A stretch of DNA of 64,000 nt from an uncultured Candidatus Saccharibacteria bacterium. Lineage in GTDB: Bacteria > Patescibacteriota > Minisyncoccia > Phycocordibacterales > Phycocordibacteraceae. Position numbers and translations under genes: made by a program. The notes below the pieces were generated by a model. The model was not told where the DNA came from. It ran no database searches and saw only the letters and a list, made by a program, of their open reading frames with translations. Every line of letters begins with the position of its first letter. The stretch's first letter is position 1. Shown here one piece after another: positions 28,229 to 63,924 of this stretch. The DNA lies in contig CAZWLE010000002.1 of assembly GCA_964634305.1 (NCBI GenBank), forward strand, positions 921 to 64,920, read 5' to 3'.

Positions 28229-29308
28229 ATGAGGATTACCTACCTCTCTACTGCCCGTATTCCCGATGAATGGGGGCATGTCATACAGATACTGAAGATG
28301 TGTGAGGCGTTTGCGGACCTCGGTCATACGGTGGAATTAGTAGTGCCTATGCGCGCTGCTACACCAACCACTGACCCATACGAGTACGTCGGCGCAAAGC
28401 GGAATTTCCGTATCACAAAACTTCCATGTCTCGATTTCTCTGCGACCGGAGAGGGAAAGTTTTTCTATTGGCTCCGTACACTCTCGTTTCTCATAGTTGC
28501 GTGTCTCTATCTTTTCTTTCGTCGTAACGAACTTATATATACACGCGAGCCTGCTGCTTCGCTCTTTTTCCGTGACTTTGCCTTTGAAGCACATGCAGTG
28601 ACGCCCGGCCTTAGTGGAGCATTAAAAAACGCTCGCACCGTTATTGCGATTACCTCATTCATAAAAGAGGAACTCGTCGCGGCAGGAGTGCCTACAGAGC
28701 GTGTCTTCATCGCGCCTGACGCAGTTGATCTCGCACCGTTCTCTTCGACCGAAGGGAAAGCAGAAGCTCGAGCACGTCTTGGTCTGCCTGATGGAAAGCT
28801 TGCGCTCTACCTTGGGCGCGTCGACGCGTGGAAAGGGTATGACGCACTGTTTGGTGCCGCTGTGCTTCTCGAGGACGTGACCGTTGTGGTAATAGGCGCT
28901 GAAGAAAAAGACCTTCCGTCCTTGCGCGCTGCGCACCCACGCGTAGTGTTTGTGCCGTTCCGACCATATAAAGAAGTAGCGGACAACCAGGCTGCTGCTG
29001 ACGTATTGCTCCTTCCCAACACTGCAAAGAACTCGATGTCCGCTCGGTATACGTCGCCGCTAAAACTCTTTACCTACATGGCCTCTGGCGTACCAATCGT
29101 TGCGTCCGATTTGCCATCGATACGGGAAATTCTCGATGAGTCGACGGCGTATCTAGTGTCGCCTGATGATGCCAAGGCACTCGCGGTAGGTATACGTACT
29201 GCGCTCGCACATTCTGACGAAGCAAAAGCACGTGCCAAGGCTGCTCGAGAAAAGGTAGAAAACTACACGTGGCGCAGCCGTGCAGAGCGTATCCTTGCTT
29301 CGTTGTAA
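28229..29308 (+). CDS. Glycosyltransferase family 4 (GT-B).
   Basis: N-terminal Glyco_trans_4-like region, and a C-terminus with NTAKNSMSARYTSPLKLFTYMASGVPIVASD. Confidence 0.75.
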   Translation: MRITYLSTARIPDEWGHVIQILKMCEAFADLGHTVELVVPMRAATPTTDPYEYVGAKRNFRITKLPCLDFSATGEGKFFYWLRTLSFLIVACLYLFFRRNELIYTREPAASLFFRDFAFEAHAVTPGLSGALKNARTVIAITSFIKEELVAAGVPTERVFIAPDAVDLAPFSSTEGKAEARARLGLPDGKLALYLGRVDAWKGYDALFGAAVLLEDVTVVVIGAEEKDLPSLRAAHPRVVFVPFRPYKEVADNQAAADVLLLPNTAKNSMSARYTSPLKLFTYMASGVPIVASDLPSIREILDESTAYLVSPDDAKALAVGIRTALAHSDEAKARAKAAREKVENYTWRSRAERILASL

Positions 29309-29921
29309 TATGGCGCACGACACACAGACTGATTTTTTTAAAAAGCAGATAACGCGTATCTTCGCTGAGAAGAAGGTAATTATCGATATTGGCGGGGGAT
29401 TGCGTATCGACCAAGCGCGGAACAATCGGTACGAAGAAGGCTACACATGGATTCATCCCTATTTGGATACGGTTGACTACAAAGTGCTCGACAAAGTCTC
29501 CGATTTCAACCCAGACATTGTTGGCGACATCCACGCACTCCCGCTTCCTGATGAGAGCGTTGATGCGATTGTATGCATCGCCGTGCTCGAACATGTTGAG
29601 GAGCCACAGAAAGCCGTACGAGAAATGCATCGTGTGCTAAAGCCTGGTGGATACTGTTTTATCTTTGCACCGTTTCTCTACTACTATCACGCAGAGAAAG
29701 GCTACTACGGTGACTTCTATCGATTCACGGAGGACGGTATGTGGTACATGACCAAGGAGTTTTCTTCCGTCGAGATTGACCCTGTACGTGGTCCTATCAC
29801 CACACTCCTTAATCTCATCCCGTTCTTTTCAAAGCGTACGGGGTGGGCATCATTTCTTGATCGATTCGCGCGACCAGGCAGTAAGCAGGTGAGTGGCTGC
29901 AATGTGTTCTGCATAAAATAG
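29280..29921 (+). CDS. Class-I SAM-dependent methyltransferase.
   Basis: IDIGGGLR motif I, and the post-I/II region DAIVCIAVLEHVEEPQKAVREMHRVLKPGGYCFI. Confidence 0.7.
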   Translation: MQSVSLLRCNMAHDTQTDFFKKQITRIFAEKKVIIDIGGGLRIDQARNNRYEEGYTWIHPYLDTVDYKVLDKVSDFNPDIVGDIHALPLPDESVDAIVCIAVLEHVEEPQKAVREMHRVLKPGGYCFIFAPFLYYYHAEKGYYGDFYRFTEDGMWYMTKEFSSVEIDPVRGPITTLLNLIPFFSKRTGWASFLDRFARPGSKQVSGCNVFCIK

Positions 29922-29923
29922 TC

Positions 29924-30616
29924 ATGACCCATTTTGACCATCTCCAAAGTTTAGTGCCAGGGCTTTCAAGTAAACGCATCCTTGATTTGGGAGCAGGACG
30001 TGGAGGCTTTCTCATAGGACTCGCCAAGCAGGGTATTAGCGCTAAGGGTGTCGAGTATAGCGACACGTATATAAAAGAGGCAAAGGAACGAGCTGAGAAC
30101 GAGGGAGTTGTCATTGATGTGGTGCAGGGTGCCGCAGAAGCATTACCTTTTACTGAGGGATCATTCGATTTTATTAACGCCTGTGAGGTGATTGAGCACG
30201 TGCAGAGTCCTGAACTTATGCTCAGAGAGATACATCGCGTACTTGTATCAGGCGGTGCAGCGTACGTATCAGTCCCAAATCGATTTGGCATGAAAGACCA
30301 ACATTTCCATCTATATGGTGTTAACTGGGTACCACGCGCGTGGTCAGATACATACATTAGCCTCTTTGGAACACATAAGAAGTATGAGGACGCATCCGCG
30401 GGCCATCAGCGACTTCGTAGCATGCATTACTACACATTTACGACTATATGTGCACTTGTGGAATCAGCCGGATTGCAGGCACAAGACATACGGCTTCGTC
30501 GGATACGTTCGGAGTACAGCGGGCTAAAGCGTAGTTTCGCGTTGATACTATACCCGTTTCTTCGCTCCTTCTATTTTGATTCTTTTCACCTTCTTCTAAT
30601 AAAACCACAGAAGTAA
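29924..30616 (+). CDS. Class-I SAM-dependent methyltransferase.
   Basis: ILDLGAGRGGFL motif I and FDFINACEVIEHVQSPELMLREIHRVLVSGGAAYVSVP. Confidence 0.75.
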   Translation: MTHFDHLQSLVPGLSSKRILDLGAGRGGFLIGLAKQGISAKGVEYSDTYIKEAKERAENEGVVIDVVQGAAEALPFTEGSFDFINACEVIEHVQSPELMLREIHRVLVSGGAAYVSVPNRFGMKDQHFHLYGVNWVPRAWSDTYISLFGTHKKYEDASAGHQRLRSMHYYTFTTICALVESAGLQAQDIRLRRIRSEYSGLKRSFALILYPFLRSFYFDSFHLLLIKPQK

Positions 30617-30661
30617 GAATGCATGACGATACATCTTGGCATATAAGCGCCACGTAGGTAT

Positions 30662-31930
30662 TTATGAATTTACCGGATGTTTATAGAAATGTACGAGACC
30701 AGAAAGAAGTATTAAATTAAACAAACGACCGAGAATGCGTGCAACAATCGCACCCATGAGCCCATATCCTATGATTCCAACCACCAGAACTATCATCTGA
30801 AAGATTGGACTCAATATATTGAATATATATAGTTCACGTTTTGCGGCCTGGGCTTCAAGCAGAGTATATGGAATTGCATTTGAGATTAATAACAGTGAAA
30901 TGGCAAACACCTGTGAGTACAGCACAGCTTCTGGATATGCAGGGAAGAGAATACGGAAGATAAACGGTGCAAGTACGATGTAAACGAGTGCAACTAGTGC
31001 AAGCATGAGAGTGAATAGCCCCATTCGTTTCCAGAAATTACCAAGTACTTCATGCATTGGTCGATTTGAGAACTTAGGAAAGGCCAATGTGGCTACACTG
31101 TTTACTGTAGATTTTGCCTGTTCTGGCAACGCAGTAGCAAATGTGTAAACAGCCAAAGGAACCGCTCCAAGAAAGTGAAAAACGAGAATCTTGTCTGCTT
31201 GTTGTGAAATGGTGCTAATGACATTCATGGCACTGAAGTGTGCTGAAAGAGAAAAGAGCTCAGGACTTGTGTCGCCTTGTGGTTTGTAGATGCGATAGGT
31301 GTGTAAACACAGCAATAGACCAATAACGATGTTGCCGCCTAAATAAGCAAGTAAGAACATGACAGGGTCACTGGTTACTGTCATGAGTCCAAGAATCAGG
31401 GCACCAGTTACAGCATTCAGTACAATGCCGTAAAGCGCCATGCGTTTAAAATCCTTCTTACCTTCCAAAAACGACCCATAAAGCAGAGATACCTGCATGA
31501 GTGGTCCAAGGACCGCTATGGTGAGCATGCCACCTGCGAGCAGCAGATTATCGTTGAGTGCGTAATAGCCGGACATCGCAAGCGCTATCACAAGGAGTGG
31601 AGTACTGCCCATGAGACTAAGCGTGAATGCTTTACGGTACGTACCATCGAATCCACGGGCTATTGCACGTGAGAGAGCGGTCGGCAATCCAGTTAGTGAA
31701 AATGCGGTTAGTACCCAGAAGACAGAGAGCAAAAAGCGGTATGTACCATACGCATCTTTGGGAACTAAGTGAGAGAACGCGACCGAGAGTCCGAGCGCTA
31801 TGAGTCCGAGCGCAATCTGCCCTAAAGTGAGCCAAAAACCCCCTTTCACGAGATAACGCATATCAGTTTTTGTTACGCGCTCAGCTATCCCAAGACCCCG
31901 TTGGAGTAGTCGCTCAGATGAAGGGTCCAT
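30662..31930 (-). CDS. Wzx-type oligosaccharide flippase (MOP/polysaccharide biosynthesis protein). The start is placed at the internal Met (MDPSSER...); the longer 32149 start would overlap the divergent gene by 180 nt.
   Basis: ~12 predicted TM helices. The polar N-terminal extension of the longer ORF is unlikely to be real. Confidence 0.7.
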   Translation of the reverse strand: MDPSSERLLQRGLGIAERVTKTDMRYLVKGGFWLTLGQIALGLIALGLSVAFSHLVPKDAYGTYRFLLSVFWVLTAFSLTGLPTALSRAIARGFDGTYRKAFTLSLMGSTPLLVIALAMSGYYALNDNLLLAGGMLTIAVLGPLMQVSLLYGSFLEGKKDFKRMALYGIVLNAVTGALILGLMTVTSDPVMFLLAYLGGNIVIGLLLCLHTYRIYKPQGDTSPELFSLSAHFSAMNVISTISQQADKILVFHFLGAVPLAVYTFATALPEQAKSTVNSVATLAFPKFSNRPMHEVLGNFWKRMGLFTLMLALVALVYIVLAPFIFRILFPAYPEAVLYSQVFAISLLLISNAIPYTLLEAQAAKRELYIFNILSPIFQMIVLVVGIIGYGLMGAIVARILGRLFNLILLSGLVHFYKHPVNS

Positions 31931-31970
31931 TGGAGCAGTATACCGAGGGTAAGTGGTATAGTCTCCCCAT

Positions 31971-34121
31971 ATGGCATTAAAAAGCGTGGCGCTCTGGACC
32001 GTCCTTGGTGCGTTGTTTATTATCCCGTTCCTCCCTTTATACGTAGCCAGTGACCTATTTTTTCCGTTTATTTCCTCCAAGGGCTTTGCATTTCGCATCA
32101 TTATTGAGCTTGCCGCAGGCGCGTACCTCCTTCTTGCCATTGCCGACAAGCGCTATCGTCCGCGCTGGTCATGGACCCTCGTTATCTATGGAGCGTTTGT
32201 AGCATGGATGTTCATTGCGAATCTCTTTGCTGAGAATGCACACAAGGCATTCTGGTCTAATTACGAGCGCATGGACGGGTGGGTCACGCTCGTCCACGTC
32301 TTCGTTTTCTTTATTATTGCCGGTGCAGTCTTGTCTGCTGACAAACTCTGGAAGCGGTGGTGGCTGACGGTACTTGGTGCCTCTGCGCTCGTATCCGTTC
32401 ATGGTGTCTGGCAGCTCTTAGGATACGCAGAGATTCACCAAGGTGGTGCGCGTCTTGATGCGAACTTCGGTAACGCCATTTACCTGGCGGTGTATCTGAT
32501 GTTCACCATCCTGATTGCGACATGGCAGGCAGTCGTGTCGAAGGGGTGGTTACGATGGTGTCTCATTGCTCTTGCTGCGCTCCAAGTCGTTCTGCTCTTT
32601 GCTACCGCAACTCGTGGTGTGGTACTGGCGCTGTTTGGTGCCTCAATTTTGATGGGCCTTGCATGGGTAGCGACGTCAGCTGCAGGGAAGGGAAAGGTGA
32701 TTGCGGGCGCTGCGGTAGGGCTGTTGCTCGTTCTTGGTGCAGGGTTCTATCTGGTGCGTGATAGTTCCTTTATTCAAAATGAACCCGCGCTCGCACGTCT
32801 TGCAACGGTCTTTAATTCCAACGAACTCACGGTACGTGCAACGCTCTGGAGCATGGCCTTTGAGGGGGCAGCGGAGCGTCCTATTACCGGTTGGGGTCAG
32901 GAAGGTTACAACTTTGTATTCAACACGTATTACAAGCCAACGCTCTACGGTCAGGAGCCGTGGTTTGATCGTGCGCACAATGAATACCTTGATTGGCTTG
33001 TTGCGGGCGGATACCCAGCATTGCTTCTCTTCGTAGCGTTATTGCTCTCGGTGCTATATGCCTTCTTCAAAAAGAAGGATGACCCGGTAGCACGTGTCTT
33101 TTTGGGTGGGGTATTGGTTGCATATGCTCTACAGGCCGTCACTGCTTTTGATAACCTGTTGTCATATATTCTTGCTGCTGCGCTCTTTGCAATGGCGCAC
33201 GATGCGAGTGCGCGCCCCATTCCCGCGCTTGAGCGTGCAGAGGAATCACGTGGAGATACGCTTGCAACCATAGGTGCGCCCGTGGTGCTTGTAGTGACGT
33301 TTGCAGTGGTGTGGTTTGTAAATGTGCCGAACATCAGTGCAGGCACCGACCTTATTCGCGCAGCCGGTGCAAAAGACGCATCTGCAGCTCTTGCTGCGTA
33401 TGAGTCTGCACTGGCGCATGAATCGTTTGCTCGCCAGGAGATACGAGAACAATTACTTAGCTTTGCAGGCAGCATTGCACAGAACGGGAGTATACCGGTC
33501 GAGGTGCGCCAGGCGGCTGTGAAGCTTGCGTTCGAACAGGCAGAGGAAGGGATTGCTGAAGTACCAAACGACGCTCGCGGCCACCTTATGTATGCGCAAG
33601 CACTCCGTCTTGCTGGAAACGGTGAAGGCGCCCTACGTGAAATAGATGCTGCACTTGCACTTTCTCCAAAAAAACAAACGACACTCATGCAGCGCGGAGC
33701 GGCAAAATGGCAGATTAATGATATGGCAGGTGCCGTAGCCGATTTTGAGGCAGCATATAACCTCGATCGTCGTAACAAGAATGCTGCGGGCTATCTTGCA
33801 GCAGGGCGTATTCTTCAAGGCGACGTTGCAGGTGGTAAGGCGCTACTCCAAGAAGTGTATGGCTCAACCGTTGTGGACCTTGATGTGCTGCGTGCTGCCT
33901 ACTTTGAGACGAAGCGCTATGCTGATCTTGTTGAGGTAGTGAAACTTTCGTCGCAGAACGAGCCTGGAAATGTACAGAAGCGTCTCCTTCTGGTACAGGC
34001 GTATGCACTCGCTGGACGCGCTGCTGAAGCGCGCACAGAAGCGGACGCGATTCGTGCAGCGCACCCAGAAGCTGCAGCGACGGTTACCACACTCTTGGTA
34101 CAGCTCGGCCTTTCGAAATGA
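31971..34121 (+). CDS. O-antigen ligase (Wzy_C/PglL-like) family membrane protein with a C-terminal TPR-repeat periplasmic domain.
   Basis: ~11 TM helices in the first ~430 aa, with a large loop containing WSMAFEGAAERPITGWGQEGYNFVF...RAHNEYLDWL (Wzy_C-like). The C-terminal ~280 aa form TPR-like helical repeats (AYNLDRRNKNAAGYLAAGRI...). Confidence 0.75.
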   Translation: MALKSVALWTVLGALFIIPFLPLYVASDLFFPFISSKGFAFRIIIELAAGAYLLLAIADKRYRPRWSWTLVIYGAFVAWMFIANLFAENAHKAFWSNYERMDGWVTLVHVFVFFIIAGAVLSADKLWKRWWLTVLGASALVSVHGVWQLLGYAEIHQGGARLDANFGNAIYLAVYLMFTILIATWQAVVSKGWLRWCLIALAALQVVLLFATATRGVVLALFGASILMGLAWVATSAAGKGKVIAGAAVGLLLVLGAGFYLVRDSSFIQNEPALARLATVFNSNELTVRATLWSMAFEGAAERPITGWGQEGYNFVFNTYYKPTLYGQEPWFDRAHNEYLDWLVAGGYPALLLFVALLLSVLYAFFKKKDDPVARVFLGGVLVAYALQAVTAFDNLLSYILAAALFAMAHDASARPIPALERAEESRGDTLATIGAPVVLVVTFAVVWFVNVPNISAGTDLIRAAGAKDASAALAAYESALAHESFARQEIREQLLSFAGSIAQNGSIPVEVRQAAVKLAFEQAEEGIAEVPNDARGHLMYAQALRLAGNGEGALREIDAALALSPKKQTTLMQRGAAKWQINDMAGAVADFEAAYNLDRRNKNAAGYLAAGRILQGDVAGGKALLQEVYGSTVVDLDVLRAAYFETKRYADLVEVVKLSSQNEPGNVQKRLLLVQAYALAGRAAEARTEADAIRAAHPEAAATVTTLLVQLGLSK

Positions 34122-35134: not shown

Positions 35135-35311
35135 TTTCTTTTCGTAAAAAATTATTTGTAAGAGTTATCCACAGCTACAACTTTTTTCGTACAAAAAAGT
35201 TTTTTGCGCGCAATAATAGTTTGTAGAACACTTTGTACGAGAAAACATTTCGCAAGAAACATTTTCTCGCACCTAAGTGGGTCGATTATTCGTCATTCTA
35301 ACTATCGCACC

Positions 35312-35386
35312 ATGGCTGCAAAGAAGAAGGCAAAGAAGACCGCAAAGAAGACCACCAAGCGCAAGAAGACCGCTAAGCGCAAGTAG
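35312..35386 (+). CDS. 24-aa poly-lysine micro-ORF (MAAKKKAKKTAKKTTKRKKTAKRK); candidate leader peptide or small basic peptide.
   Basis: ATG at 35312 and TAG at 35384. 11 of 24 codons are AAG/AAA Lys. A strong intrinsic terminator starts 13 nt after the stop. The upstream part of the 60-aa ORF (35204..) is AT-rich and not protein-like. Confidence 0.3.
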   Translation: MAAKKKAKKTAKKTTKRKKTAKRK

Positions 35387-35397
35387 TCCGCTTTAAC

Positions 35398-35433
35398 GAA
35401 AACCCCCGCACTCGCGGGGGTTTTCGTTTTCTT
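35398..35433 (+). terminator. Rho-independent terminator or attenuator hairpin, 16 nt upstream of the secA start.
   Basis: AAAACCCCCGC actc GCGGGGG TTTTCGTTTTCTT: a 7-bp G/C stem followed by a U-run. Confidence 0.7.
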
Positions 35434-38011: not shown

Positions 38012-38992
38012 ATGGCGTTTGTAGACGAGATACGTATTCACGCACAGGCCGGCCACGGTGGTCCGGGCGTTGTGCGTTGGCTCCATATCCGTGGCAAGGA
38101 TAAGGGTGGCCCATCGGGAGGCGACGGCGGTCGTGGTGGTGACATTGTGCTCGAAGGAGTCCGTGACCTCGCCGTGCTCGCAAGCTATCGCTTCACAAAA
38201 AAAGTGCGCGCAGAAAATGGTAAACCAGGAGGCAGCAACGATAAGCATGGTGCCGACGGTGTTCCAACGGTGTTGAAGGTACCTGTAGGTACGGTCGCGC
38301 GCGTCGTGACGACTCGTGAGGAATTTGAAATCCTTGAGGAAGGACAGCGTATCGTCATCTTTAAGGGTGGTCCTGGTGGATACGGGAACGCCCACTTTAA
38401 AAGCTCCACAAATCAGAATCCCGACTCTGCAAAGGAGGGTAAAAAGGGACAGGTTGGGGATATCGAAATCACCCTAAAACTCATTGCTGACGCTGGGTTT
38501 ATAGGGTTCCCAAATGCCGGGAAGTCGTCTCTTTTGAATGCGCTTACCCGCGCTGATTCGAAGGTGGGCGCGTACCCCTTCACCACCCTCGACCCTCACC
38601 TCGGGGACTTCTATGGCCACCTTCTTGCTGACATTCCGGGTCTTATTGAGGGTGCCTCGTCAGGCCGAGGTCTTGGTTCTAAGTTCCTTCGTCACGTAGA
38701 ACGTACAGGTTTGCTTGTACATCTTGTCTCGGCTGAACAAGAAGACGTCGCCGCATCCTATAGGGCCATACGAGAGGAACTTTCTGCCTTTGGTCGCGGT
38801 CTCGCAGAGAAAGCAGAGCTCGTCGTGCTCTCAAAGTCCGACCTTGTGACTCCGGAAGAGCTCGAAGAACGCCGAACGGCGCTCCAAGCTGCGGTAGGGG
38901 AGCGGGAGGTAATCACTCTTTCGGTCATCGACGATGACGCCCTAAAGGCCTTTTCGGACCGACTTGCTCGCTTGCTCGAGACTAAGTCCTAG
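38012..38992 (+). CDS. obg: GTPase Obg/CgtA.
   Basis: N-terminal Gly-rich Obg fold (GGPGVVRW...GGDGGRGGDIVL), and G-domain motifs GFPNAGKSSLLNAL and DIPGLIEGAS. Confidence 0.9.
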   Translation: MAFVDEIRIHAQAGHGGPGVVRWLHIRGKDKGGPSGGDGGRGGDIVLEGVRDLAVLASYRFTKKVRAENGKPGGSNDKHGADGVPTVLKVPVGTVARVVTTREEFEILEEGQRIVIFKGGPGGYGNAHFKSSTNQNPDSAKEGKKGQVGDIEITLKLIADAGFIGFPNAGKSSLLNALTRADSKVGAYPFTTLDPHLGDFYGHLLADIPGLIEGASSGRGLGSKFLRHVERTGLLVHLVSAEQEDVAASYRAIREELSAFGRGLAEKAELVVLSKSDLVTPEELEERRTALQAAVGEREVITLSVIDDDALKAFSDRLARLLETKS

Positions 38993-40405: not shown

Positions 40406-40489
40406 GCCACTAATTCCAAGACATCTCGTCTTGCACAGATTGGTGAAAAGTCTCTTCTAAAAGAGACGAGATATCCTATACTTCAAGGA

Positions 40490-41320
40490 ATGGATGAGCT
40501 TACTATCGATGGGAAAATCTATGTATCGTCTAAACGGGCCGCTGCCATAACCGGGTATGCGAAGGACTACATAGGGCAGCTGTGCCGTGAGGGGCGTGTT
40601 GAAGCGAAATTAGTGGGACGCAGCTGGTACGTATACGAGCCGTCTCTCAAGAAGCATCGCTTTAATGATGAGGAAGAGCAGCCTGAGGTGCCAAAAGCAG
40701 AGACAGCGTGGGGAAGTCTTCCAACAGAAGAGCCAATACCAGCTCCTTCTTCTCCTGAACTATCCGAAAACACTAGTATTCAGGCCGTTTGGGATGCACC
40801 AACCTACGCAGCAGAGGAAGTAGAACCGCTGCCTGAACTTGAGCCAGTCGTTGAAGAACCAGCTCAAGAACCACTTACTGATATGCAGTCAGCGTGGCAG
40901 GAATGGTTTGCAAACCGCCCTGAAGAGGCGCCAGTAACCGAATTAGTGGCAGAAGAGGTTGTAGAAGCTCCTAGAGCTCCTGAAGAGTCAAAAGAAGAAC
41001 CTAAAGAGGCCCCTGTAGCAGAAGCAGTACCGTTGAAGGTCATTGTGAGCGATATACAGCCTGTACGGGAGGAACGTGTAGTACCTGCAGCCCCTGCTGT
41101 GCGAGTAGCGCCAGTAGCATCACCTGTACGTATCCTGCAGAGAAAGACGGTCAAAAAGGGAAATAATCGCCTTATGGAAGCAGCGCTTATCTTGGTTATG
41201 GTGGTGAGTGCATCAATAGCTCTCATTTCAACAGGCGCTATAGAGATGCTTCATGTTGGTGGTACCTCAAGCGTGCCTCCTATCCAATATCTTGAAGGTT
41301 CGATACTGATAGAAAGATAG
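40490..41320 (+). CDS. Membrane protein with an N-terminal excisionase/MerR-like HTH (HTH_17-like), an acidic Pro/Glu-rich linker and a C-proximal TM anchor. Its N-terminus is paralogous to that of the giant protein.
   Basis: SSKRAAAITGYAKDYIGQLCREGRVEAKLVGRSWYVYEPSL aligns with ISTRDASALSGYHSDYLARLCREEKIVGSRIGRSWVLDRASL of the 41864 gene. The TM is AALILVMVVSASIALISTGAI (nt ~41180–41245). Confidence 0.7.
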   Translation: MDELTIDGKIYVSSKRAAAITGYAKDYIGQLCREGRVEAKLVGRSWYVYEPSLKKHRFNDEEEQPEVPKAETAWGSLPTEEPIPAPSSPELSENTSIQAVWDAPTYAAEEVEPLPELEPVVEEPAQEPLTDMQSAWQEWFANRPEEAPVTELVAEEVVEAPRAPEESKEEPKEAPVAEAVPLKVIVSDIQPVREERVVPAAPAVRVAPVASPVRILQRKTVKKGNNRLMEAALILVMVVSASIALISTGAIEMLHVGGTSSVPPIQYLEGSILIER

Positions 41321-41402
41321 CCTATATATTGATTATCTCGTCTCGTATAAACGAGTAGCTAAAAATAGCTCAGGTACAGCGAAAACGTACTAAAGAGAAA
41401 AC

Positions 41403-41434
41403 GACCTGAGTAATTCAGGTCGGTTTCTTATTAT
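41403..41434 (+). terminator. Rho-independent terminator after the 40490 gene.
   Basis: GACCTGA gtaa TTCAGGTC followed by GGTTTCTTATTAT. Confidence 0.55.
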
Positions 41435-41633: not shown

Positions 41634-41861
41634 ACGCGTGTTTGTGATGTTTGTTCAGAAATTACATCCACAGACTCATTTTTGACTTCAAATGTTCTTT
41701 AAACACGCGTGAATGATGCTTGCGTAAGTACGTTGTTAAAACGTTTTGAAATATATTTTTTACTTCAACGTAGTTGCGTGAAATTTTTTTCATTTTATCC
41801 CCAAACTTTTCTAGGTACATGCGAATTTCACGCGATAAAATCTAGTTACTTCGGATATCCG
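41634..41861. promoter_or_regulatory. AT-rich leader of the giant gene carrying three perfect palindromic/inverted-repeat elements; candidate operator/promoter region.
   Basis: IR1 is ACGCGTGTTT (41634–41643) / AAACACGCGT (41701–41710). IR2 is GCGTGAAATT (41776–41785) / AATTTCACGC (41825–41834). A 10-bp palindrome CGGATATCCG (41852–41861) ends 2 nt before the ATG. Confidence 0.3.
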
Positions 41862-41863
41862 AC

Positions 41864-44800
41864 ATGTCATTGCTCCTTGATTCAAATCTAATTTCTACTC
41901 GAGACGCATCGGCGCTTTCTGGGTATCACTCCGACTATCTCGCGCGCCTCTGCCGCGAAGAAAAAATTGTTGGAAGTCGCATTGGTCGTTCATGGGTACT
42001 CGACCGTGCATCGCTTGATGCGTTTATACGCGACCAAGAGCTCGCAAAGAAAGAACATGCCGTTGCTCTTACTCGTCAGCGTGAGCAGGAATACCGTGAA
42101 GCACAGAAAGTACACGAGACTATCGCCGTTGTAGAGGCAGAACAGGCTTCAGAGACGCCTGTAGAGGCTCCTGAAGTAGTTTCTGTGCCTGTTACAACAC
42201 CCGTATCAGCACCAGAACGCTCGTACGTGCCGATTCCAAGTCCATACGCGGAGCTTCACCCGATTCGTAACAGTGCCGTTGCTGCTCTGATTGCAGTTGT
42301 TTCTGTTGGTAGTGGCTTGGTTGCTGCTGAGGCTCGCATTGTTGAGCATGTAGCACGCATTTCAGTAGAAAACGTAGCAATTGCTAGCGATATCGGATAC
42401 GAAGCGCTCGCATCTGCAGCTACAGCGACGCTCGCGTTTGAGACAGAACTTGGCCGTTCCATCATTAGTGGTGTCGATACCCTCGCTACTCTCACGCGCG
42501 CCGAGCATCAAAGCGACACGGCTGCCTCAATTCGCTTTGCCTATGACGCAGGGGCACTGCTCCATGCACCAACGCTCCAGACCATTCCGGAGGCACTGTA
42601 TGGAGCACAACTCTCAATCGGTACTACGCTTATCGGAACATCTGATGCAATACTCGCAGCGCATCACACCGGTACGAATGCATGGGTTGAGGGTAGCGAC
42701 ATTGTGCCGCGTCGCGTTATTGCTGCTATCTACGGCGTTGGTGATGAGTTCCAGCGTGTTGCACTTCTTGCACCGCACGCTGCTGCAACGACTGCAGATA
42801 CTGCTATTGTTGCGCTCGCCGGCGAGACGCGCACCGTTGCAAACAACGCCGTTGATGCGATTTCATCGTCGCGTGATGTATTCGCACGAGCATTCAACAC
42901 ACGATTGGTTGAGCCGCGCGCAACACTTGCAGCGGTACCGCATGAAGACACGTTGGGCCCTGCACGTGCGCTTGCACTCTTTACGTACGAAACACTCAAC
43001 AGCTTCTTTGACGCGACGAGTCGTACGCTCGCAATGCTTTTCGCACCGCTTGCGCCAAACGTTGCCTACGCACCAGAACTTACTGTGCCTGGTACAGGTA
43101 CCACTTCTGTCTCTCGCCAGGTCGTTGAAGTCAGCCGAGTAGTAAATGAAATAACGAACGTTACGTACTCAAGCCCGATTACCTACGTGTACGGTGGCGT
43201 CACTATGGAGTACGTTCGTGCGGCTATAGAGAACCTCCGCGATGACGTTGCTGATGCTGATTATGGCTCAGGGGATGGCGGCCTCGCAGACATCACTGGC
43301 TCCTCTATAGAAGAGCTTTCTGACGTGGGTACCATGGCTAAGACCTGGGGCGATTTACTCTTCTGGGATGGTACTGAGTGGTCGAACCTCGCAACATCAA
43401 GCCTTGGTATTACGGGTAGTGGTATTCCAGGTGGCGCACCAGGCTACGTGCAATACAACGTTGGTGGAAACTTTGGAGGTGACGCCGCTTTTACGTTTGA
43501 TGCTGCTGCAGACCGCCTCTCCTTTACGTACGGTTCGACCACCGCATTTTCAACGGGATTCCTGAATGCAACGAGCGCAGTCATCGATACACTCTCATCA
43601 ACGGTTGCAACGGTCACCAGTCTTATTGCAACGAATGCTACTACTACTAACGCAACGTCGACGAATCTCACAGCGCTTAACTCGTTCGCACTTGGTGCTG
43701 ACCGCATCACTGATCTCACCGGCTCAGGTCTAACAGTAACGGCAGGTGCGCTCGCTGTTGATGATGTAACGCCGGCGATGCTTCAAGCGGCAGACTTTGG
43801 TGATTTCACTTGTAACGGTACGTCATGTTCATTTGATGCGGACACAGTGTCTGACAGTGAGCTCGATTACGGCACGGTCACACTAACTGACTTCACCAAC
43901 GATGCAGGGTTTATCACTGGTATTGGTGCGTTCTCGATTGAAGACCTATCGGATGTTGCCGCGATGACAGAGAGCTATGGCAACCTTCTCTCCTGGAACG
44001 GGAGCGCGTGGACGAACATTGCGACCTCGACGTTGAACATTGCCCTCAGCAACACGACAGGCATTCTTCCTATTAGTAGAGGAGGCACCGGTACTTCTAC
44101 CGTTCCGACCTACGGACAGCTACTCGTAGGTGACGGCCTCGGGGGCTATGCACTACTTGCGACCTCTTCTCTGGGTATTTCCGGCAGCGGCGGTACGCCA
44201 GGTGGGCTTACAGGTCAGGTGCAGTTTAATAGCGCAGGTACGTTCGCAGGAGACACTGGCTTTACCTACGACGCAGCGGCTGACCGTTTGACTGTAACCT
44301 ATGCGTCTTCGACAGCCTTCTCCTCTATATATGCCTCGTCAACGAACGTATTTGCGGGGAATCTGACCGTTGGCTCACTCACGGGCATCTTGAAAGCTAC
44401 GGGCGGGGTAGTCTCTGCAGCGACTGCCGGTACTGACTATGAGAACCCCCTTACCTTTGCCTATCCTCTGACGCGCTCAGTGAATACTGTTTCTCTCGCG
44501 TTTGGTACCACGACGACTAACACCTGGGTACATCAAATCTTCTCGTCCCTCGTTGCAACAAATGCGTCTTCAACCAACGCCACGACGAGCCAGCTGGCCG
44601 TCACGTCACTGCCGTCACAGCTCCTACGCACGGATGGTACGGGACGCCTTGCAGGGACGACTATAGGTACGGGCCTTACCTTCGACGGTACGACGCTCTC
44701 AGCAACAGGTGGCGGCGGGACAGGTAACGTTTCAACCTCAAGCAGTGAGACCGCAGGACAGGTACCGTACTGGACGACCACGGCAGGCTCTCCAGCGCGT

Positions 44801-56800: not shown

Positions 56801-56983
56801 GATACTTCTGGCGGAGACACAGGCGGCGGAGATACCGGTGGTGGCGAAGGCGATACTGGCGGAGGTGATACGGGTGGTGACACCGGCGGCGGAGATACCG
56901 GCGGAGGCGACTCTGGCGGAGATTCCGGAGGTGGCGGAAGTGAGGGTGGGGACTCGGGCGGCGGAGAGGGTGGCGCTCCTTAA
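41864..56983 (+). CDS. Giant (5,039 aa) repeat-rich cell-surface protein with an N-terminal HTH_17-like domain and a single TM anchor. The ~4,850-aa predicted extracytoplasmic region is rich in Ser/Thr/Gly/Ala/Asn and built from beta-solenoid-like modules. It ends in a conserved C-terminal domain, a Cys pair, and an acidic Gly/Asp/Thr tail.
   Basis: A single uninterrupted 15.1-kb ORF. The N-terminus is paralogous to the 40490 protein. The TM is AVAALIAVVSVGSGLVAA (aa ~135–155). Repeated modules include LTGILKATxGVVSAATAGTDY, LYGGTGxTTAP, SYDAWTHPAAGQSATTSL and GCYAINGTC. The tail is GGDTGGGDTGGGEGDTGGG... Confidence 0.85.
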   Translation: MSLLLDSNLISTRDASALSGYHSDYLARLCREEKIVGSRIGRSWVLDRASLDAFIRDQELAKKEHAVALTRQREQEYREAQKVHETIAVVEAEQASETPVEAPEVVSVPVTTPVSAPERSYVPIPSPYAELHPIRNSAVAALIAVVSVGSGLVAAEARIVEHVARISVENVAIASDIGYEALASAATATLAFETELGRSIISGVDTLATLTRAEHQSDTAASIRFAYDAGALLHAPTLQTIPEALYGAQLSIGTTLIGTSDAILAAHHTGTNAWVEGSDIVPRRVIAAIYGVGDEFQRVALLAPHAAATTADTAIVALAGETRTVANNAVDAISSSRDVFARAFNTRLVEPRATLAAVPHEDTLGPARALALFTYETLNSFFDATSRTLAMLFAPLAPNVAYAPELTVPGTGTTSVSRQVVEVSRVVNEITNVTYSSPITYVYGGVTMEYVRAAIENLRDDVADADYGSGDGGLADITGSSIEELSDVGTMAKTWGDLLFWDGTEWSNLATSSLGITGSGIPGGAPGYVQYNVGGNFGGDAAFTFDAAADRLSFTYGSTTAFSTGFLNATSAVIDTLSSTVATVTSLIATNATTTNATSTNLTALNSFALGADRITDLTGSGLTVTAGALAVDDVTPAMLQAADFGDFTCNGTSCSFDADTVSDSELDYGTVTLTDFTNDAGFITGIGAFSIEDLSDVAAMTESYGNLLSWNGSAWTNIATSTLNIALSNTTGILPISRGGTGTSTVPTYGQLLVGDGLGGYALLATSSLGISGSGGTPGGLTGQVQFNSAGTFAGDTGFTYDAAADRLTVTYASSTAFSSIYASSTNVFAGNLTVGSLTGILKATGGVVSAATAGTDYENPLTFAYPLTRSVNTVSLAFGTTTTNTWVHQIFSSLVATNASSTNATTSQLAVTSLPSQLLRTDGTGRLAGTTIGTGLTFDGTTLSATGGGGTGNVSTSSSETAGQVPYWTTTAGSPARLGSVATTTFAVSGPFNVSGSLGSLIGGTNATISYYGLATTSNISQGQVLYGTSASGVASVATSTPALSTAFSYSGTLGSFVGGASGTLSLANNGVALTNLAQIAANTVLANPTGAIGNVQAIATSTFFGTGTGGYVLAWNNGAPTWVGTSSIQNGVAAIGPAGQTQTGTVLIATSTSGTDITVTATGGTITFNIPSASASARGLLTSTDWNTFNNKISSTSLSGGTGISYNSGSGVITNTGVTSLSGTTNQITASAATGAVTVSLPGLVAFPNAYTASYGTTTYASSTALSSVYASSTNASFGNLSVGTLTGPLQAVNGVVSASSTLSVVYGGTGWNAVQSGALLYGNGAGRLATTTQGTGGQVLAWLNGIPTWTATSSIQNGVSSVQQSFGAAQTGAITLATSSDTNVLLSITNSGGTFTFTPSWTGTLAYGRGGTGTTTAPAGQLLYGGTTAYQSVATSTVSAGTGIGFTGTPGYLVGGTNLTITNNGVTSISGTTNQITASAGTGAVTLSLPGLVAFPNAYTASYGTTTYASSTALSAAYASSTNLFVGNFTLGTLNGPLQANNGVVSATTTIGAIYGGTGQSSYAAGDLLYADSATSLARLPVSTNGLVLKLVGGLPSWQPDLTTGGGGGAGAWSTTTDSLAIYPSDTSDVVIIGASATSTTGSIFEVAGRSYFSNTLSIGTTSGSSLFRLAVQGNGLFSGNLSTANLTATGTVSTANLTATAATTTYLGINNETFTDLTGTGLQNVGGALTINATGDWTGTFDGQEGTYYLNRANHTGTQLASTISDFDGAVNTYIAGSTTIPKTYSANTFTGAQVFSSGVTIGTLNGPLQANNGVVSATTSVGVLYGGTGLTTAPSYGQILVGNSSGGYTLTATSSLGLVTSAVTAIGPAGQAQTGPTVTFATSSTAYNGLTASTTITATGNTITFANTLAGLLGVAGGGTGSTTLGGILTGNGTGQVTSATVSAPLSFSGNTLSISQANGSTNGYLSSTDWNTFNNKISSTSLSGASVISYTSGTGVITTTGGTFGAGNYVFPSALTVQGASSFQNASTTNLSANTLAVGGTGTTSVSATGALTTPSLTIGSLTGILKATAGLVSVATGGTDYENPLTFVYPLTRAVNSISLAFGTTTANTWGAQQTFSGLFATNASTTNATTTSLGINNETFTDLTGTGLQNVGGALTINATGDWTGTFDGQEGTYYLNRANHTGTQLASTISNFDATVNAYIHGSTTIPKTYTANTFTAAQVFSGGVTIGTLNGPLQANNGVVSATTSIGVLYGGTGLTTAPTYGQILVGNSSGGYTLTATSSLGLVTSAVTAIGPAGQTQTGPTITLATSSTAFNGLTASTTITGTGNVITFSNTLAGVLGVAGGGTGSTTLGGILTGNGTGQVTSATVSAPLSFSGNTLSISQANGSTNGYLSSTDWNTFNNKISSTSLSGGTGISYNSGSGVITNTGVTSLSGTTNQITASAATGAVTLSLPGLVAFPNAYTATYGTTTYASSTALSTVYASSTNAFFGNLSVGALTGPLQALNGTVSASSTLSVAYGGTGWNSIQANAVLYGNGAGRLATTSAGTNGQVLALVNGVPTWVATSSINNGVSSIRQSFGAAQTGAITLATSSDTNVLLSITNSGGTFTFAPSWTGQLAVARGGTGAGSFTSGQLVYGAGTGALQSVATSTFAVSGPFTTSGTLGSLVGGTNATVTYYGLATTSAISQGQVLYATGAAGVASVATSTPTLSAAFSYSGTLGSFVGGVNGTLSLATNGVALNNLAQIAANTVLANPTGATGNVQAIATSTFFGTGTGGQVLTWNNGVPQWVATTTYANGTGISTSFANGQLTITNTGVTSLSGTTNQITASAGTGAVTLSLPSLVAFPNAYTATYGTTTYASSTALSSVYASSTNVFAGNLSIGALTGILKATAGVVSTAVAGTDYVAGGAGAATTTLSFSGPFTTSATPVVFGSSPITTTYYGLATTSAISQGQVLYGTSASGVASVATSSVSAGTGIGFTGTPGALVGGTALTITNTGVTSLSGTTNQITASAGTGAVTLSIPSLFSIQQASTTMLSSNGPFFVGTTSTTTIWGNATSTFSGGINLTNGGCYAIGGTCIGALGASGTVNNGTTGQIPYYAANGNILTATSSIFIAASSDVGIGTNAPTNYGAGYRTLAIDGAASGVLDVMSNGTLSGTLYNDGSTFRVGNRNPSAFELITDNTPRLTISGGGDVTINGGSLTIGTLSGLLKATNGLVSAATAGTDYIAGGAGAATSSVSCAGTASCTSFVAFSATPITITGTGLSAYDAWTHPAAGQSATTSLILLDGNASTTQLSATRAYFGGTATSTFTATGALGIATTSPQGLLEIGNNDTGTIGAYITNANTSIGTPRALLSIRNNYAATGLNLYALGSSHFNNGRFRQDGALIEAGSSLSGGLSIATETTAPIRFYTNGDNERLRITETGLVGIGTTSPQFLLQLAAATSPQLTLSDGSLTAAPFNFRAINNTLYLSTSSPTTFATTSTAFASFNNTTGSTSLLKLDVTGSATSSFAGGINLTTGCYAINGTCLPTTAGLASYDAWTHPAAGQSATTSLMLFNGNASTTQLSATRAYFGGTATTTITAAGFVGVGSSTPWAQLSINPTSANGSAPSFVIGSSTGTRFVVRNDGAVGIGTAAPTDALYIQDPNGRGMTINQGSISLLNPSGNAGRLSFNGGSDTSRFWFSPSHEQNYISFDDVGDGYSHVLAIEGGAGTDTGLLYFDSSENLGVATSSPYARLSVWGNSTGKIFEAVTAASSSALSVSATGFGTTTVSGLTISGSATSTSNVGFNITTGCYAINGTCISGGGSGLSSYDAWTHASIYQSATTSMMGFGTTTPRWALQVASSTAPQLTLSDATGGHWSFRSINGNLYIATSSATTFATTSTTALTINTVGNIGIGSSSPWGQLSINANGGVTGSNPLFAIGSSTSNLLVVDYAGRMGLGTTSPYAKLSVVGETVSTFFTATSTSATSTFAGGLNVGSGALTHDFTSGVTSIGNLAIGAMTFDTNSGVISWVDMPVTSTASAGTVQSYSAQLDGTSVLTVYAVSDGAGGIASTSVGISSSTPWGMFSVEQTNGTTSPVFVVGDQGTSTPHLYIGANGRVGVGTTSPWARTSLNAPAGEAAFAIGSSTRNLFYVTSLGTTTIGRGLDIIGAVATSSSNVGWNITTGCYAVNNTCLSGGLSSYDAWTHASIYQSATTSMMGFGTTTPRWALQVASSTAPQLALSDGSLTSNHWTFRNAGGGLFIGTSSPLTFATTSISALTINASGNLGIGTTSPSSRLTVAGSGFFEGSNNYINFATTTGANGYGFRDNGGVMEFKNMGGTWQGVTTATTGPSFSVHKNSSDQTVTAGIDTLLTWATEEYDTNNNFNLGTGRFQPTVPGKYVIYLQVRTTNGSSAVASIYKNGSLYKLGIVSSALIANVTAVVDMNGSTDYVDAYVTNTGGTTISGNITQTYFSGIMVAPLNNNVATNLNLQYDGTQTTQVDQTKFFGLGTSTPWGQFAINPLASNGNAPSFVIGSSTATNFIVTNAGNVGIGTTSPASKLHIFASTGAAQLDFDASASQFRGFTVKTGNSTRWAVGGGTSVAESGSNVGSNLFIDRYSDSGSYLGTAMTFIRSSGYVGIGTTTPAWNLNIADATRSQLTLSDGSVTQNPWSFRSINGNLYIATSSPSTFATSTVAALTINSNGTVLVGNGLGKLTIGTLDPVYTVNGTAYATYMAGMIGVKEETTGNAVIDTPLTAEDGSTGYVAVLDFDELEPGSDLWLFSQTTHIRKNIDKLVVLLTAENGGKVWYEIDKAERKVYLLADRPTRVSYRMTAPRFDSESWTNFNHDGVIGFTPPSDDLTVYFTDEHALSFGNANLVSGTSTLATLLEEYDEEGEEELKPWTAALVEASDGLKTAMDDLSNQVIEVMHGAQYFADGIFKRIFAQEVYTDKICVTDAEGETCLTRAQLNQLLSGAAASGGGNTSGGSGDTSGGDTGGGDTGGGEGDTGGGDTGGDTGGGDTGGGDSGGDSGGGGSEGGDSGGGEGGAP
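45481..45669 (+). repeat. Intragenic repeat patches: 45481–45572 matches 49135–49226 with two mismatches (each at a codon third position, eye-aligned), and 45601–45669 matches 46348–46416 perfectly (69 bp).
   Basis: Direct alignment by eye of the quoted DNA stretches. Confidence 0.7.
47001..47755 (+). repeat. Copy A of a ~1.29-kb-period intragenic direct repeat; mosaic of perfectly identical and synonymously diverged patches relative to copy B.
   Basis: 47001–47146 is identical to 48291–48436 (146 bp). 47619–47755 is nearly identical to 48909–49045. The intervening segments encode the same peptide with many synonymous differences. Confidence 0.75.
48291..49045 (+). repeat. Copy B of the ~1.29-kb-period intragenic direct repeat.
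   Basis: See copy A; the offset between copies is 1,290 nt. Confidence 0.75.
53330..53460 (+). repeat. Near-identical ~130-bp patch repeated at 54437–54567 (period ~1.1 kb) inside the SYDAWTH/GCYAxNxTC module series.
   Basis: The stretch tacgacgc(c/a)tggac(t/c)cacgcgtctatctatcagtcagcaacgac(a/g)tcgatgatgggctttgg... is present in both. Confidence 0.65.
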
Positions 56984-62947: not shown

Positions 62948-63924
62948 CGGCCCGCACGTATATCCGCACAGCCCTGGTGATTGGCCTTCTTGCTCTCGGT
63001 ATCTATGCGATGGTGCAGTATGTTCGCCCAGAACCAGTTGTCAGTTCTGTGTCTGCTACGCGTGAGGGTATTGAAGCGTTGGTAAAAAAAGAAGGTCCTG
63101 CAGATGCCTACGTAGTGCTCAAGAAACAGTACGCGGGTACCAACTACGATTTACAGCACAACGTATCGCATCTTCTTGGGGAAGCTATTTACGATGCTGA
63201 CGGTCTTGCGGCGGTGCGCGTATGCGATGCAGAGTTTAACTACGGGTGCTATCACGGCTTCTTTAAGAGAGCGGTATCCGAACAGGGCGTCAGTGTTCTA
63301 CAGGAGCTCGATGGCGAGTGTGCGCAGTTTACTGACGGACGTTCGTCACAATGCCAGCACGGACTTGGTCACGGACTCATTGAGTTCTTTGGCATGAAAG
63401 GACTACCGAAGGCACTGGAAGCATGCGCAACCCTTCCACAACCAGACCCAGTCGCGGGATGCTCGTCGGGTGTCTTCATGGGTTACAACTTACGATTCGA
63501 GCCAACGGGGAAGGATGGCTTTATAACCGTGGCGCGTCCGATTGCGTCTGGTGAATCGGCATACACTCCATGCGATACGGTAGCTGAATCGTTTGCCGAA
63601 TCCTGTTACTACCAACTACCACAGTGGTGGAACCAGGTGTTCGATAAGGACTTCTCAAAATTTGGGTCACTCTGTGCGGCTCTCTCAAGTGACGTGGTGC
63701 GGTCGCGATGCTTCCAAGGCATCGGCAACATCGCAGCCTCGTCTGGAGGATATGACGTCGCGCGTACCAAGGAACTCTGTGCACTCATGCCAAGTGCTGA
63801 AGGAGAGGCAACGTGTGTGGTCGTTGCAAGTTGGGCATTTGAGAAAAATATCTTTGACCACGAGAAAGCACTCGAGATGTGTGCAGACGTTGCGCCAGAC
63901 GCAAAAACCTATTGTCCTGTATGA
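62944..63924 (+). CDS. Cys/His-rich membrane-anchored exported protein; paralog of 61739.
   Basis: N-terminal TM ALVIGLLALGIYAMV. Conserved CxHGLGHG motif and a similar Cys spacing. ATGA start/stop overlap with the next gene. Confidence 0.7.
   Translation: MTARTYIRTALVIGLLALGIYAMVQYVRPEPVVSSVSATREGIEALVKKEGPADAYVVLKKQYAGTNYDLQHNVSHLLGEAIYDADGLAAVRVCDAEFNYGCYHGFFKRAVSEQGVSVLQELDGECAQFTDGRSSQCQHGLGHGLIEFFGMKGLPKALEACATLPQPDPVAGCSSGVFMGYNLRFEPTGKDGFITVARPIASGESAYTPCDTVAESFAESCYYQLPQWWNQVFDKDFSKFGSLCAALSSDVVRSRCFQGIGNIAASSGGYDVARTKELCALMPSAEGEATCVVVASWAFEKNIFDHEKALEMCADVAPDAKTYCPV

Follow-up and report, generated by a model that had tools for sequence, protein, structure and literature searches.

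Patescibacteria are ultra-small, mostly uncultured bacteria, many of them presumed to live on the surface of other cells, attached to them, and to our knowledge little is known of how their cells are regulated and organized. Here we describe a pair of neighboring genes in a stretch of 64,000 nucleotides (nt), hereafter the window, from an uncultured Candidatus Saccharibacteria bacterium (GenBank assembly GCA_964634305.1, contig CAZWLE010000002.1, positions 921 to 64,920 of the forward strand). The first gene codes for a protein of 276 amino acids (aa), p276, and the second, a 15-kb open reading frame (ORF), for a giant surface protein of 5,039 aa. Both products start with a small domain, here termed the head, that resembles DNA-binding winged helix-turn-helix (wHTH) domains, and both carry a single predicted transmembrane (TM) helix. 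In Paceibacteria-type Patescibacteria the pair forms a conserved module of two genes, whose products are, by prediction, both bitopic membrane proteins with a cytoplasmic N-terminal head.

The features of the locus are collected in Table 1. The two genes are separated by an AT-rich gap of 543 bp (35% GC, against 52% in the window), and their neighbors are murB, secA (2.5 kb upstream), obg, gatB and genes for surface proteins. A terminator-like hairpin after p276 implies that the giant gene has its own promoter. The scan of neighboring genes found no integrase or phage genes nearby in the window, and an Rfam scan of the window found no RNA family. The head occurs in just two copies in these 64 kb, one in each protein of the pair. 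An original prediction, made from the letters of the window, had placed an excisionase/MerR-type helix-turn-helix domain at the N-terminus of the giant protein, in the segment 41864-42340; the peptides that it quoted are present where it put them, and the segment corresponds to residues 1-159 of the giant, from the helix-turn-helix through the TM helix.

Table 1. Features of the gene pair and its surroundings, in window coordinates.
Feature	Position	Strand	Basis or remark
obg	38012-38992		Coding sequence carrying a composite element, 1.8 kb upstream of p276
Composite element ATCTTGTCTCG-N5-ACAAGA inside obg	38721-38742	+	Synonymous positions fixed, 74 orthologues
Near copy of GAGACGAGA, opposite orientation	40424-40432		
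GAGACGAGA element, p276 promoter region	40463-40471	+	At most 1 mismatch upstream of p276 in 51/81 loci
p276 (276-aa bitopic protein)	40490-41320	+	ORF and translation, hydropathy, comparison with orthologues
wHTH head of p276, residues 12-58	40523-40663	+	HTH_17 profile, paralogy, orthologue comparison
TM helix of p276, residues 226-256	41165-41257	+	Hydropathy, positive-inside; RKTVKKGNNR just before
Composite element TCTCGTCTCG-N5-ACGAGT	41336-41356	+	16 nt past the p276 stop
Terminator-like hairpin and T run, 3' of p276	41402-41432	+	
TTATCCCCAAA box, -68 from the giant ATG	41795-41805	+	At about -68 in 50/76 loci
TAAAAT, -10-like box	41836-41841	+	About 25-30 nt before the giant ATG; upstream-region alignment
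TTACTTCGGATATCCGAC, directly before the giant ATG	41846-41863	+	Fixed position, most of 76 loci
Giant ORF, 5,039 aa	41864-56983	+	ORF list, translation
wHTH head of giant, residues 9-58	41888-42037	+	HTH_17 match, AF2, Foldseek
Long helix after giant head, residues 48-96	42005-42151	+	AF2, orthologue conservation
TM helix of giant, residues 136-160	42269-42343	+	Kyte-Doolittle peak 2.14, positive-inside bias
783-aa paralogue of the giant's repeats and C-terminal domain	56987-59338	+	48% identity over 338 aa, E 9e-82

Of the two profiles named in the original prediction, Pfam HTH_17 (PF12728) recognizes the isolated head of the giant and not that of p276, and TIGR01764 recognizes neither. Scanned alone, residues 1-67 of the giant match HTH_17 with 29.1 bits (E 1.2e-6; gathering score 27), residues 10-58 covering profile positions 2-50 of 51; within longer pieces of the sequence the score drops to 21-24 bits, and membership of this head in HTH_17 is best regarded as borderline, at or just above the threshold. 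Residues 12-50 of p276 reach 14-18 bits, which is below the threshold, while orthologous giants score 26.6-29.8 bits and relatives with two domains 29.4-34.4 bits, those of both kinds that pass the threshold lying between 27.3 and 34.4 bits. The TIGR01764 scores of the two proteins, 18.4 and 12.6 bits, fall short of the threshold of that model (28.8 bits). No other curated Pfam or NCBIfam model matches the head family; in particular, the Pfam scan of the head returned no MerR, Trans_reg_C, HTH_25 or DUF4115. The PHROG excisionase family phrog_1840 does match the giant head (E 6e-5), and the two heads of the window are 38% identical to each other across 50 residues (E 2e-13), which bears out the claim that they are paralogous.

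An AlphaFold2 (AF2) model of residues 1-97 of the giant, built from an alignment of 28 family sequences, has a mean predicted local distance difference test score (pLDDT) of 91.8 and the β-α-α-β-β-α topology of a winged helix, as anticipated; a model from the single sequence, with no alignment, was poor (pLDDT 54). Its elements are β1 (9-11), α1 (12-19), α2 or the recognition helix (23-31), a β-hairpin wing (37-47) and a single long helix, which may act as a coiled coil or in dimerization. Foldseek searches of the PDB with this head recovered TraN of the plasmid pIP501 (identity 28-30%, root-mean-square deviation (rmsd) 2.3 Å), the Xis protein of mycobacteriophage Pukovnik (TM-score 0.72-0.74) and BldC (TM-score 0.70-0.75), followed by DNA-bound RacA, GlnR, the excisionase RdfS and MtaN. 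With a domain of only 50 residues the E-values are, as expected, weak (0.025 and above); the matches are mutually consistent, and nearly all belong to the MerR/Xis class and are bound to DNA. Searching PDB sequences with a profile gave TraN (listed as AM32) as the sole match (E 0.013). The family is marked by the signature GYxxDY[ILV][GAS][QR]L[CA]R...G[RKN]xW[YFL][IV], with Y21, D24, Y25, R31 and W44 (giant numbering) invariant. On these profile matches and the structural model, the head is a wHTH domain of the excisionase/MerR/TraN class, in agreement with the original prediction.

A hydropathy scan found one strong TM segment in each protein and no hydrophobic segment at either N-terminus, on which ground an N-terminal signal peptide was rejected. 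The 15 residues before the TM helix hold on average more Lys and Arg than the 15 after it: 2.0 versus 0.93 in 71 giant orthologues, 4.1 versus 0.9 in 78 p276 orthologues and 3.8 versus 1.26 in 144 other family members. Given this positive-inside bias and the lack of a hydrophobic N-terminus, the heads are predicted to be cytoplasmic, as had been proposed for the giant. Its TM helix begins about 80 residues past the head, and the remainder, about 4,880 residues, is predicted to lie outside the cell. In p276 the head is followed by an acidic, Pro/Glu-rich linker with a WQEWF motif, the TM helix close to the C-terminus and an outside tail of just about 20-30 residues. With so few residues outside the cell, p276, to which an anti-sigma-like layout had been ascribed, is no sensor of the anti-sigma or ToxR type.

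The outer part of the giant is repetitive, with Thr (16%), Gly (13.6%), Ser (11.6%) and Ala (11.6%) making up 53% of its residues. Its last 1,039 residues match the PHROG tail fiber family phrog_9942 (E 4e-9), a fiber-like character that fits the earlier placement of most of the protein outside the cell, and there is a weak similarity to C1q (19.9 bits against a cutoff of 23.7). One orthologue of the giant (locus L010) contains a Peptidase_S74 intramolecular chaperone domain, found in this orthologue only, and a surface immunoglobulin (Ig)-like domain; together with the C1q match, the Peptidase_S74 domain suggests a trimeric fiber. The 783-aa paralogue has a plain N-terminal signal anchor and no head, and the head is therefore dispensable for the export of such fiber proteins; the alternative once offered, that the domain had been repurposed as a secretion or sorting determinant, finds no support. 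The C-terminus of the giant (residues ~4990-5039, window 56840-56980) is a low-complexity Gly/Asp/Ser/Thr tail (GGDTGGGDTGGG...), unlike the Pro/Glu-rich tail of the paralogue.

To delineate the family, a profile of both heads was compared with 1.84 billion cluster representatives (clusters at 50% identity), of which 7,127 matched at E<=1e-3 and 3,433 at E<=1e-10. The architecture recurs throughout the best 150 members: in 143 the head or heads are followed by one TM helix and no more; linkers have a median length of 106 residues, a median of 46 residues follow the TM helix, and most members carry tandem double heads. Clear single-head orthologues of p276 among the family matches number seven (232-283 aa); their first 58 residues are near-invariant while the remainder is less than 50% identical, WQEWF being a second small motif common to them.

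A scan seeded with p276, covering one genome per species, detected relatives in 236 genomes, all labelled Patescibacteria (Paceibacterota, Parcubacteria, Kaiserbacteria, Minisyncoccia and generic 'Saccharibacteria' bin labels), and 80 of the loci were fetched. In 75 of these 80, p276 is followed 260-1,780 bp downstream (median ~540 bp) by an ORF on the same strand that starts with the head domain, within the first ~25 residues and usually at residues 3-7. All but four of these 75 ORFs exceed 2,000 aa or run off the end of the contig (71/75); closed giants include proteins of 2,067, 2,369, 2,690 and 2,732 aa, and nearly all giant orthologues have a TM helix at residues ~100-200. An independent metagenome scan seeded with the giant-type head gave a similar picture, with p276 upstream in 13 of 16 close relatives, and also returned further closed giants, 1,457-2,738 aa in length, as well as small relatives with 108-148 aa. 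In this lineage, large Patescibacteria proteins hence regularly begin with the head domain, which answers in the affirmative the question behind the proposed survey of such proteins. With 7,127 representatives in the family and recurrence in 75 of 80 loci, the domain and its arrangement are far beyond chance.

This recurrence bears directly on whether the fusion might be trivial, be it a start called in the wrong place, a small helix-turn-helix gene joined to a fiber gene in assembly, a signal peptide, or the excisionase gene of a prophage lying beside a tail-fiber gene. Such an explanation draws on the phage tail-fiber similarity of the fiber and the excisionase similarity of the head, and we consider it extremely improbable and refuted by the comparative data: the same fusion, with the same ATG context, is found in 75/80 independent genomes and 13/16 metagenome contigs, synteny with obg and gatB is conserved, integrase or phage genes are absent nearby, and the N-terminus is not hydrophobic. 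An assembly-fusion artefact was rejected on the recurrence across genomes and metagenome contigs, and a role in a mobile element, in a prophage or as an excisionase on the conserved housekeeping synteny and the lack of an integrase.

The pattern of conservation in the giants points the same way. In an alignment of 71 giant N-termini, conservation is confined to residues 1-80, comprising the head and the helix after it, the helix pattern Q..RK.E.A..LA..RE.EY..A being kept to about residue 80 (71-73 orthologues); neither the linker nor the TM helix nor the first 360 outside residues show conservation. That the cytoplasmic head is the most constrained part of a surface protein of several thousand residues is strong evidence that the fusion is functional and no artefact. 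The same alignment is relevant to a further possibility, namely that the giant is a releasable factor similar to Notch or SREBP, in which contact or tension on the fiber would lead to intramembrane proteolysis and the freed head would alter expression, with p276 as a decoy or co-factor. The architecture would permit this, with its head in the cytoplasm, a linker that is poorly conserved, a single TM helix and a very large part outside the cell, and operator-like sites are conserved at the locus, as described below. However, the TM and juxtamembrane residues are unconserved, and substrates of regulated proteolysis usually keep helix-destabilizing residues there; the window yielded neither a site-2 protease nor a cleavage motif; and in such small cells DNA would be within reach without release. 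Release by proteolysis, which is purely inferential, appears improbable to us.

The size and repetitiveness of the giant gene have consequences for its representation in databases. Of the 75 downstream ORFs, 68 run off the end of the locus; in ~45 of them the contig itself ends there, and the rest reach the 10-kb limit of the fetched flank. The repetitive giant gene breaks short-read assemblies, and its products are systematically truncated or missing in databases. A word-indexed search returned no homologue for residues 1-85 of the giant, nor, in a collection of 5.8 billion proteins, for residues 1-480, the latter probably because most of the contigs end inside the gene. An alignment query gave short fragments only, and a lookup of the exact p276 sequence gave no record; it was the exhaustive profile search that brought the family to light.

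Relatives with tandem heads were also seen in the fetched loci (L010 19980-20882, L027 13576-14598, L042 13533-17462, L039 11178-19391 and L062 12661-18501). They include large proteins (at least 1,310, at least 1,940 and 2,732 aa), the common form being ~320 aa, and several of their genes sit just downstream of the giant gene. A stand-alone relative of 77 aa (P0174) comes from a contig full of broken genes.

As to whether the heads bind DNA, the closest guide is the crystal structure of TraN with DNA, in which R23, N24, Q28, H82 and R86 contact bases and the wing residues G47-G48 and G100-K101 lie in the minor groove (PMC10877727). In the profile alignment most of these contact residues have counterparts in the family, at GYxxDY (the second x), the invariant Asp, IGQL or LxRL (the Gln or Arg) and the wing (the conserved Gly-Arg), R86 falling in a TraN insertion that the family lacks. 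The residues at the base-contact positions differ between the two types of head (Lys/Asp/Gln in p276, Ser/Asp/Arg in the giants), as would be expected of paralogues with different target sequences. This correspondence is circumstantial evidence that the heads may bind DNA, as are the conserved elements described next.

Candidate targets come from a comparison of the DNA around the gene pair across 81 loci (the 80 fetched and the window). Upstream of p276, the element in Table 1 belongs to a family form, CGAGACGAGA, that consists of two CGAGA copies at about -35 to -20 from the ATG, and in the window it is followed by a -10-like box, TATACT, ~8 nt before the p276 ATG. A composite element lies 7-20 nt past the p276 stop, with the reverse-oriented family form TCTCGTCTCG-N5-AC[GA]AGA; exact TCTCGTCTCG occurs within 60 nt of the stop in 54 loci, always in the same orientation. 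(The motifs of the locus are also written TCTCGTCTCG-N5-AC[AG]AGA and TTCGGATATCCGAC.) The same composite recurs inside obg, where the codons for His-Leu-Val-Ser are fixed as CAT CT[CT] GTC TCG (Ser TCG in 74/74, Val GTC in 70/71, His CAT in 72/74), while 4-6 synonyms are in use at neighboring codons for Leu, Arg and Thr. Within 2.7 kb there is a cluster of three to four TCTCGTCTCG-type sites.

Before the giant gene, the TTATCCCCAAA box has the DnaA-box-like family consensus TTATCC[AC]CA (window 41795-41803). The TAAAAT box, TAnnAT in the orthologues, we infer to be the -10 of the giant promoter. The element abutting the start codon has the consensus TAATTCGGATATCCGAC, contains the palindrome CGGATATCCG (41852-41861) and is unique in the window. 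These intergenic motifs stand at fixed positions in 50-57 of 76 species, against a chance expectation of ~0-3, and are conserved across species whose remaining intergenic DNA is unalignable. The palindromes at 41634-41861 had been named as possible binding sites; CGGATATCCG proved to be conserved across species, and those at 41634-41710 and 41776-41833 did not. A conserved RNA hairpin at CGGATATCCG was rejected: its left arm varies with no compensating change on the right, and the constraint is hence on the sequence itself. A replication origin, which the AT-rich gap and the DnaA-box-like motif had brought into consideration, was likewise rejected, as the flanking genes are co-oriented and there is no switch in GC skew, which is positive on both sides of the gap outside the giant gene. 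The recognition helix of p276 and its candidate site are both invariant across loci, the protein in part by construction, since the patterns with which the loci were retrieved (MDE[LI]TIDG and GYAKDY[VI]G) were drawn from the head. The conserved elements are plausible operators or tether sites for the heads.

The sequence TTATCCACA, the DnaA-box consensus, has a wider distribution. There are 85 copies in the 1.25 Mb of loci L001-L080 and the window (for example at 35165-35173 and 41795-41803 in the window, L027 13525, L042 13482 and L039 19575), every one of them oriented with the genes that follow it; the other strand has none. They sit upstream of the giant gene, of further genes for proteins with a helix-turn-helix and a TM segment, and of a gene for a small basic protein. 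These genes look like a small regulon under DnaA or another factor. In the window the small gene (35312-35386, + strand, between murB and secA) codes for a Lys/Ala-rich basic protein of 24 aa (MAAKKKAKKTAKKTTKRKKTAKRK) that resembles histone H1-like or nucleoid proteins, and its region (35165-35428) includes a terminator of its own (35401-35428). About 50 loci contain orthologues, which are 22-70 aa long, and such genes have an exact TTATCCACA ~140 nt upstream together with a conserved GCGCGCAATAATA.

Elsewhere in the window, the region 28229-34121 upstream of murB contains genes for a GT4 glycosyltransferase and an O-antigen-ligase-like Wzy_C protein with TPR repeats, which suggests a surface-glycan locus. 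Positions 59357-61696 code for a secreted protein of 779 aa that has a weak peptidoglycan-binding match, a surface Ig-like domain and, at its C-terminus, an unusual series of GYY repeats (QGYYQGYYYGQGYY...). They are followed at 61739-63924 by adjoining genes, overlapping by 4 bp, for two Cys-rich membrane-anchored or secreted proteins (402 and 326 aa) that look paralogous and have no Pfam match.

The interpretation that we put forward, tentatively and as one with a substantial though less than even chance of being right, is that the heads are membrane-tethered DNA-binding modules acting on nearby sites, in autoregulation, in tethering the locus to the envelope, or in both. The heads would bind double-stranded DNA while held at the membrane, as ToxR and CadC do with another class of helix-turn-helix. 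The candidate targets would be the TCTCGTCTCG-type sites that flank p276 and lie inside obg, and the TAATTCGGATATCCGAC element abutting the start codon of the giant. The amount of head at the membrane could then feed back on expression of the module and, as a by-product or possibly as the main purpose, the locus would be held at the envelope, where the product of a 15-kb gene has to be inserted. Which head would bind which element, and with what regulatory outcome, is likewise conjectural.

Several observations weigh against it. The net charge of the giant head is about zero (a median of +1 across 60 residues), which is little for a DNA-binding domain, and an invariant Asp stands within the recognition helix; the near-invariance of the p276 head would equally suit a conserved protein partner; and the motifs are tied to the heads by proximity and co-conservation alone. 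A trimeric fiber would present three heads, an odd geometry for a palindromic operator. The TTATCC[AC]CA box also precedes the unrelated gene for the small basic protein, and may belong to DnaA or another factor.

Some of these features would be natural if the wHTH had been repurposed as a protein-protein adaptor, with a cytoskeletal, divisome or secretion partner, or the head of the other protein of the pair, as its ligand. There is precedent for helix-turn-helix domains as protein binders, in the RodZ domain that binds MreB and in the MerR-like CbpM, which binds CbpA. The topology of the window proteins is the same as that of RodZ, the complex of CbpM with the CbpA J-domain is among the fold matches (with a poor rmsd), secA lies close upstream, and the invariant residue pair in the 'recognition' helix, Asp-Tyr, along with the charge and conservation just mentioned, would suit such a role. 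On the other hand, Pfam gives no match to the RodZ-type domains HTH_25 and DUF4115, the nearest relatives in sequence and structure bind DNA and their contact positions are kept (PMC10877727), and an adaptor would leave the conserved cis elements beside both genes unexplained. We regard an adaptor as unlikely, though deserving of serious attention.

The distribution of the elements raises the question of whether regulation need be involved at all. On the model of RacA, the heads might serve purely as a chromosome-to-envelope tether, holding the nucleoid or the locus at the membrane or the fiber base for segregation, positioning or mechanical coupling. DNA-bound RacA is among the nearest folds, and the long helix after each head is a feature of RacA and MerR proteins; three or four TCTCGTCTCG-type sites are clustered in 2.7 kb, and the one in coding sequence is unlikely to be a simple operator; and the extreme conservation of the p276 head is typical of core factors of cell biology. 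However, two of the elements lie exactly at promoter and start-codon positions and are in this respect operator-like, no equivalent of DivIVA or ParA is found in the window, and the distribution of sites is known from 20-kb neighborhoods only. A tether with no regulatory function is in our judgement also on the unlikely side, if a worthwhile candidate.

A bolder form of the membrane-tethered DNA-binding proposal, which we hold to be decidedly unlikely, would make the fiber a physical line connecting the chromosome with the cell surface. In one version the head would bind the element at its own start codon as a cis 'transertion' tether, keeping the 15-kb gene close to the membrane during export of its product and limiting new rounds of expression. 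In the other version it would be released upon contact with a host, so that the head would report attachment to the genome and p276 would set the threshold through its own sites.

Whatever the mechanism, the findings define a large, uncurated family of Patescibacteria proteins, comprising at least 7,127 clusters at 50% identity, and a gene pair conserved in at least 75 species that has no described function. The best-conserved part of a surface fiber of several thousand residues is an 80-residue cytoplasmic head of DNA-binding type. We found no description of this architecture in the Patescibacteria literature, and no precedent in which the tether of such a head is a giant surface fiber. If the heads do bind the adjacent conserved sites, they would connect a giant surface structure directly to DNA, the first such link to be described in these organisms, and the elements reported here would provide concrete candidate operators.

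By their predicted layout the heads and their tethers are membrane-tethered helix-turn-helix proteins, closest in topology to the ToxR-type regulators and RodZ, and yet they fail the domain tests that define both of these. The ToxR-like proteins (ToxR, CadC, TcpP and PsaE) share, by prediction, the N-in bitopic layout with a cytoplasmic winged helix and one TM helix; they act on DNA while membrane-bound and are often encoded beside a second small bitopic protein. Their DNA-binding domain, however, is of the OmpR/PhoB type, for which no Trans_reg_C match was seen here, the heads being of the MerR/Xis type, and outside the cell the ToxR-like proteins have a compact sensor of 100-250 aa in place of a stub of ~20-30 residues or a fiber of ~4,900 residues. 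RodZ is alike in its N-terminal cytoplasmic helix-turn-helix, linker, single TM helix and extracytoplasmic part, but its helix-turn-helix is of the Xre type (HTH_25) and accompanied by DUF4115, neither of which was detected in the window proteins or their relatives. Anti-sigma factors of the zf-HC2 or RskA type offer no parallel in the Pfam matches, and no sigma-factor gene was found among the scanned neighbors.

The members of the HTH_17/excisionase family (Xis, TorI, RdfS and BldC) have the same β-α-α-β-β-α fold as the heads, which differ in forming a distinct and tightly conserved subfamily on membrane proteins, with no integrase or mobile element nearby; from the stand-alone recombination directionality factors described by TIGR01764 they are set apart by score, the lack of an integrase and the housekeeping neighbors. 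With the MerR regulators they share the wHTH and the long helix, but in place of an effector domain there are a disordered linker and a TM helix, and Pfam gives no MerR match. RacA of Bacillus subtilis anchors origin-proximal sites to the cell pole. It resembles the heads in that its wHTH is MerR-like and leads into a long helix or coiled coil, and it tethers specific chromosomal sites to the envelope, as the heads may do, but it is soluble, reaches the membrane through DivIVA and is 7% identical in the structural alignment. The best match in the PDB in both sequence and structure remains TraN of pIP501 (4p0y, 4p0z, 4pm3 and 6g1t), a small soluble cytosolic repressor of a conjugation operon that, unlike the window proteins, has no linker, TM helix or extracellular part. 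It has two tandem wHTH domains, as do most of the top-scoring relatives, against one in each of the window proteins; like the heads, these are of the excisionase/MerR type, and they have the base-contact positions and the Gly-Lys/Arg of the wing in common with them.

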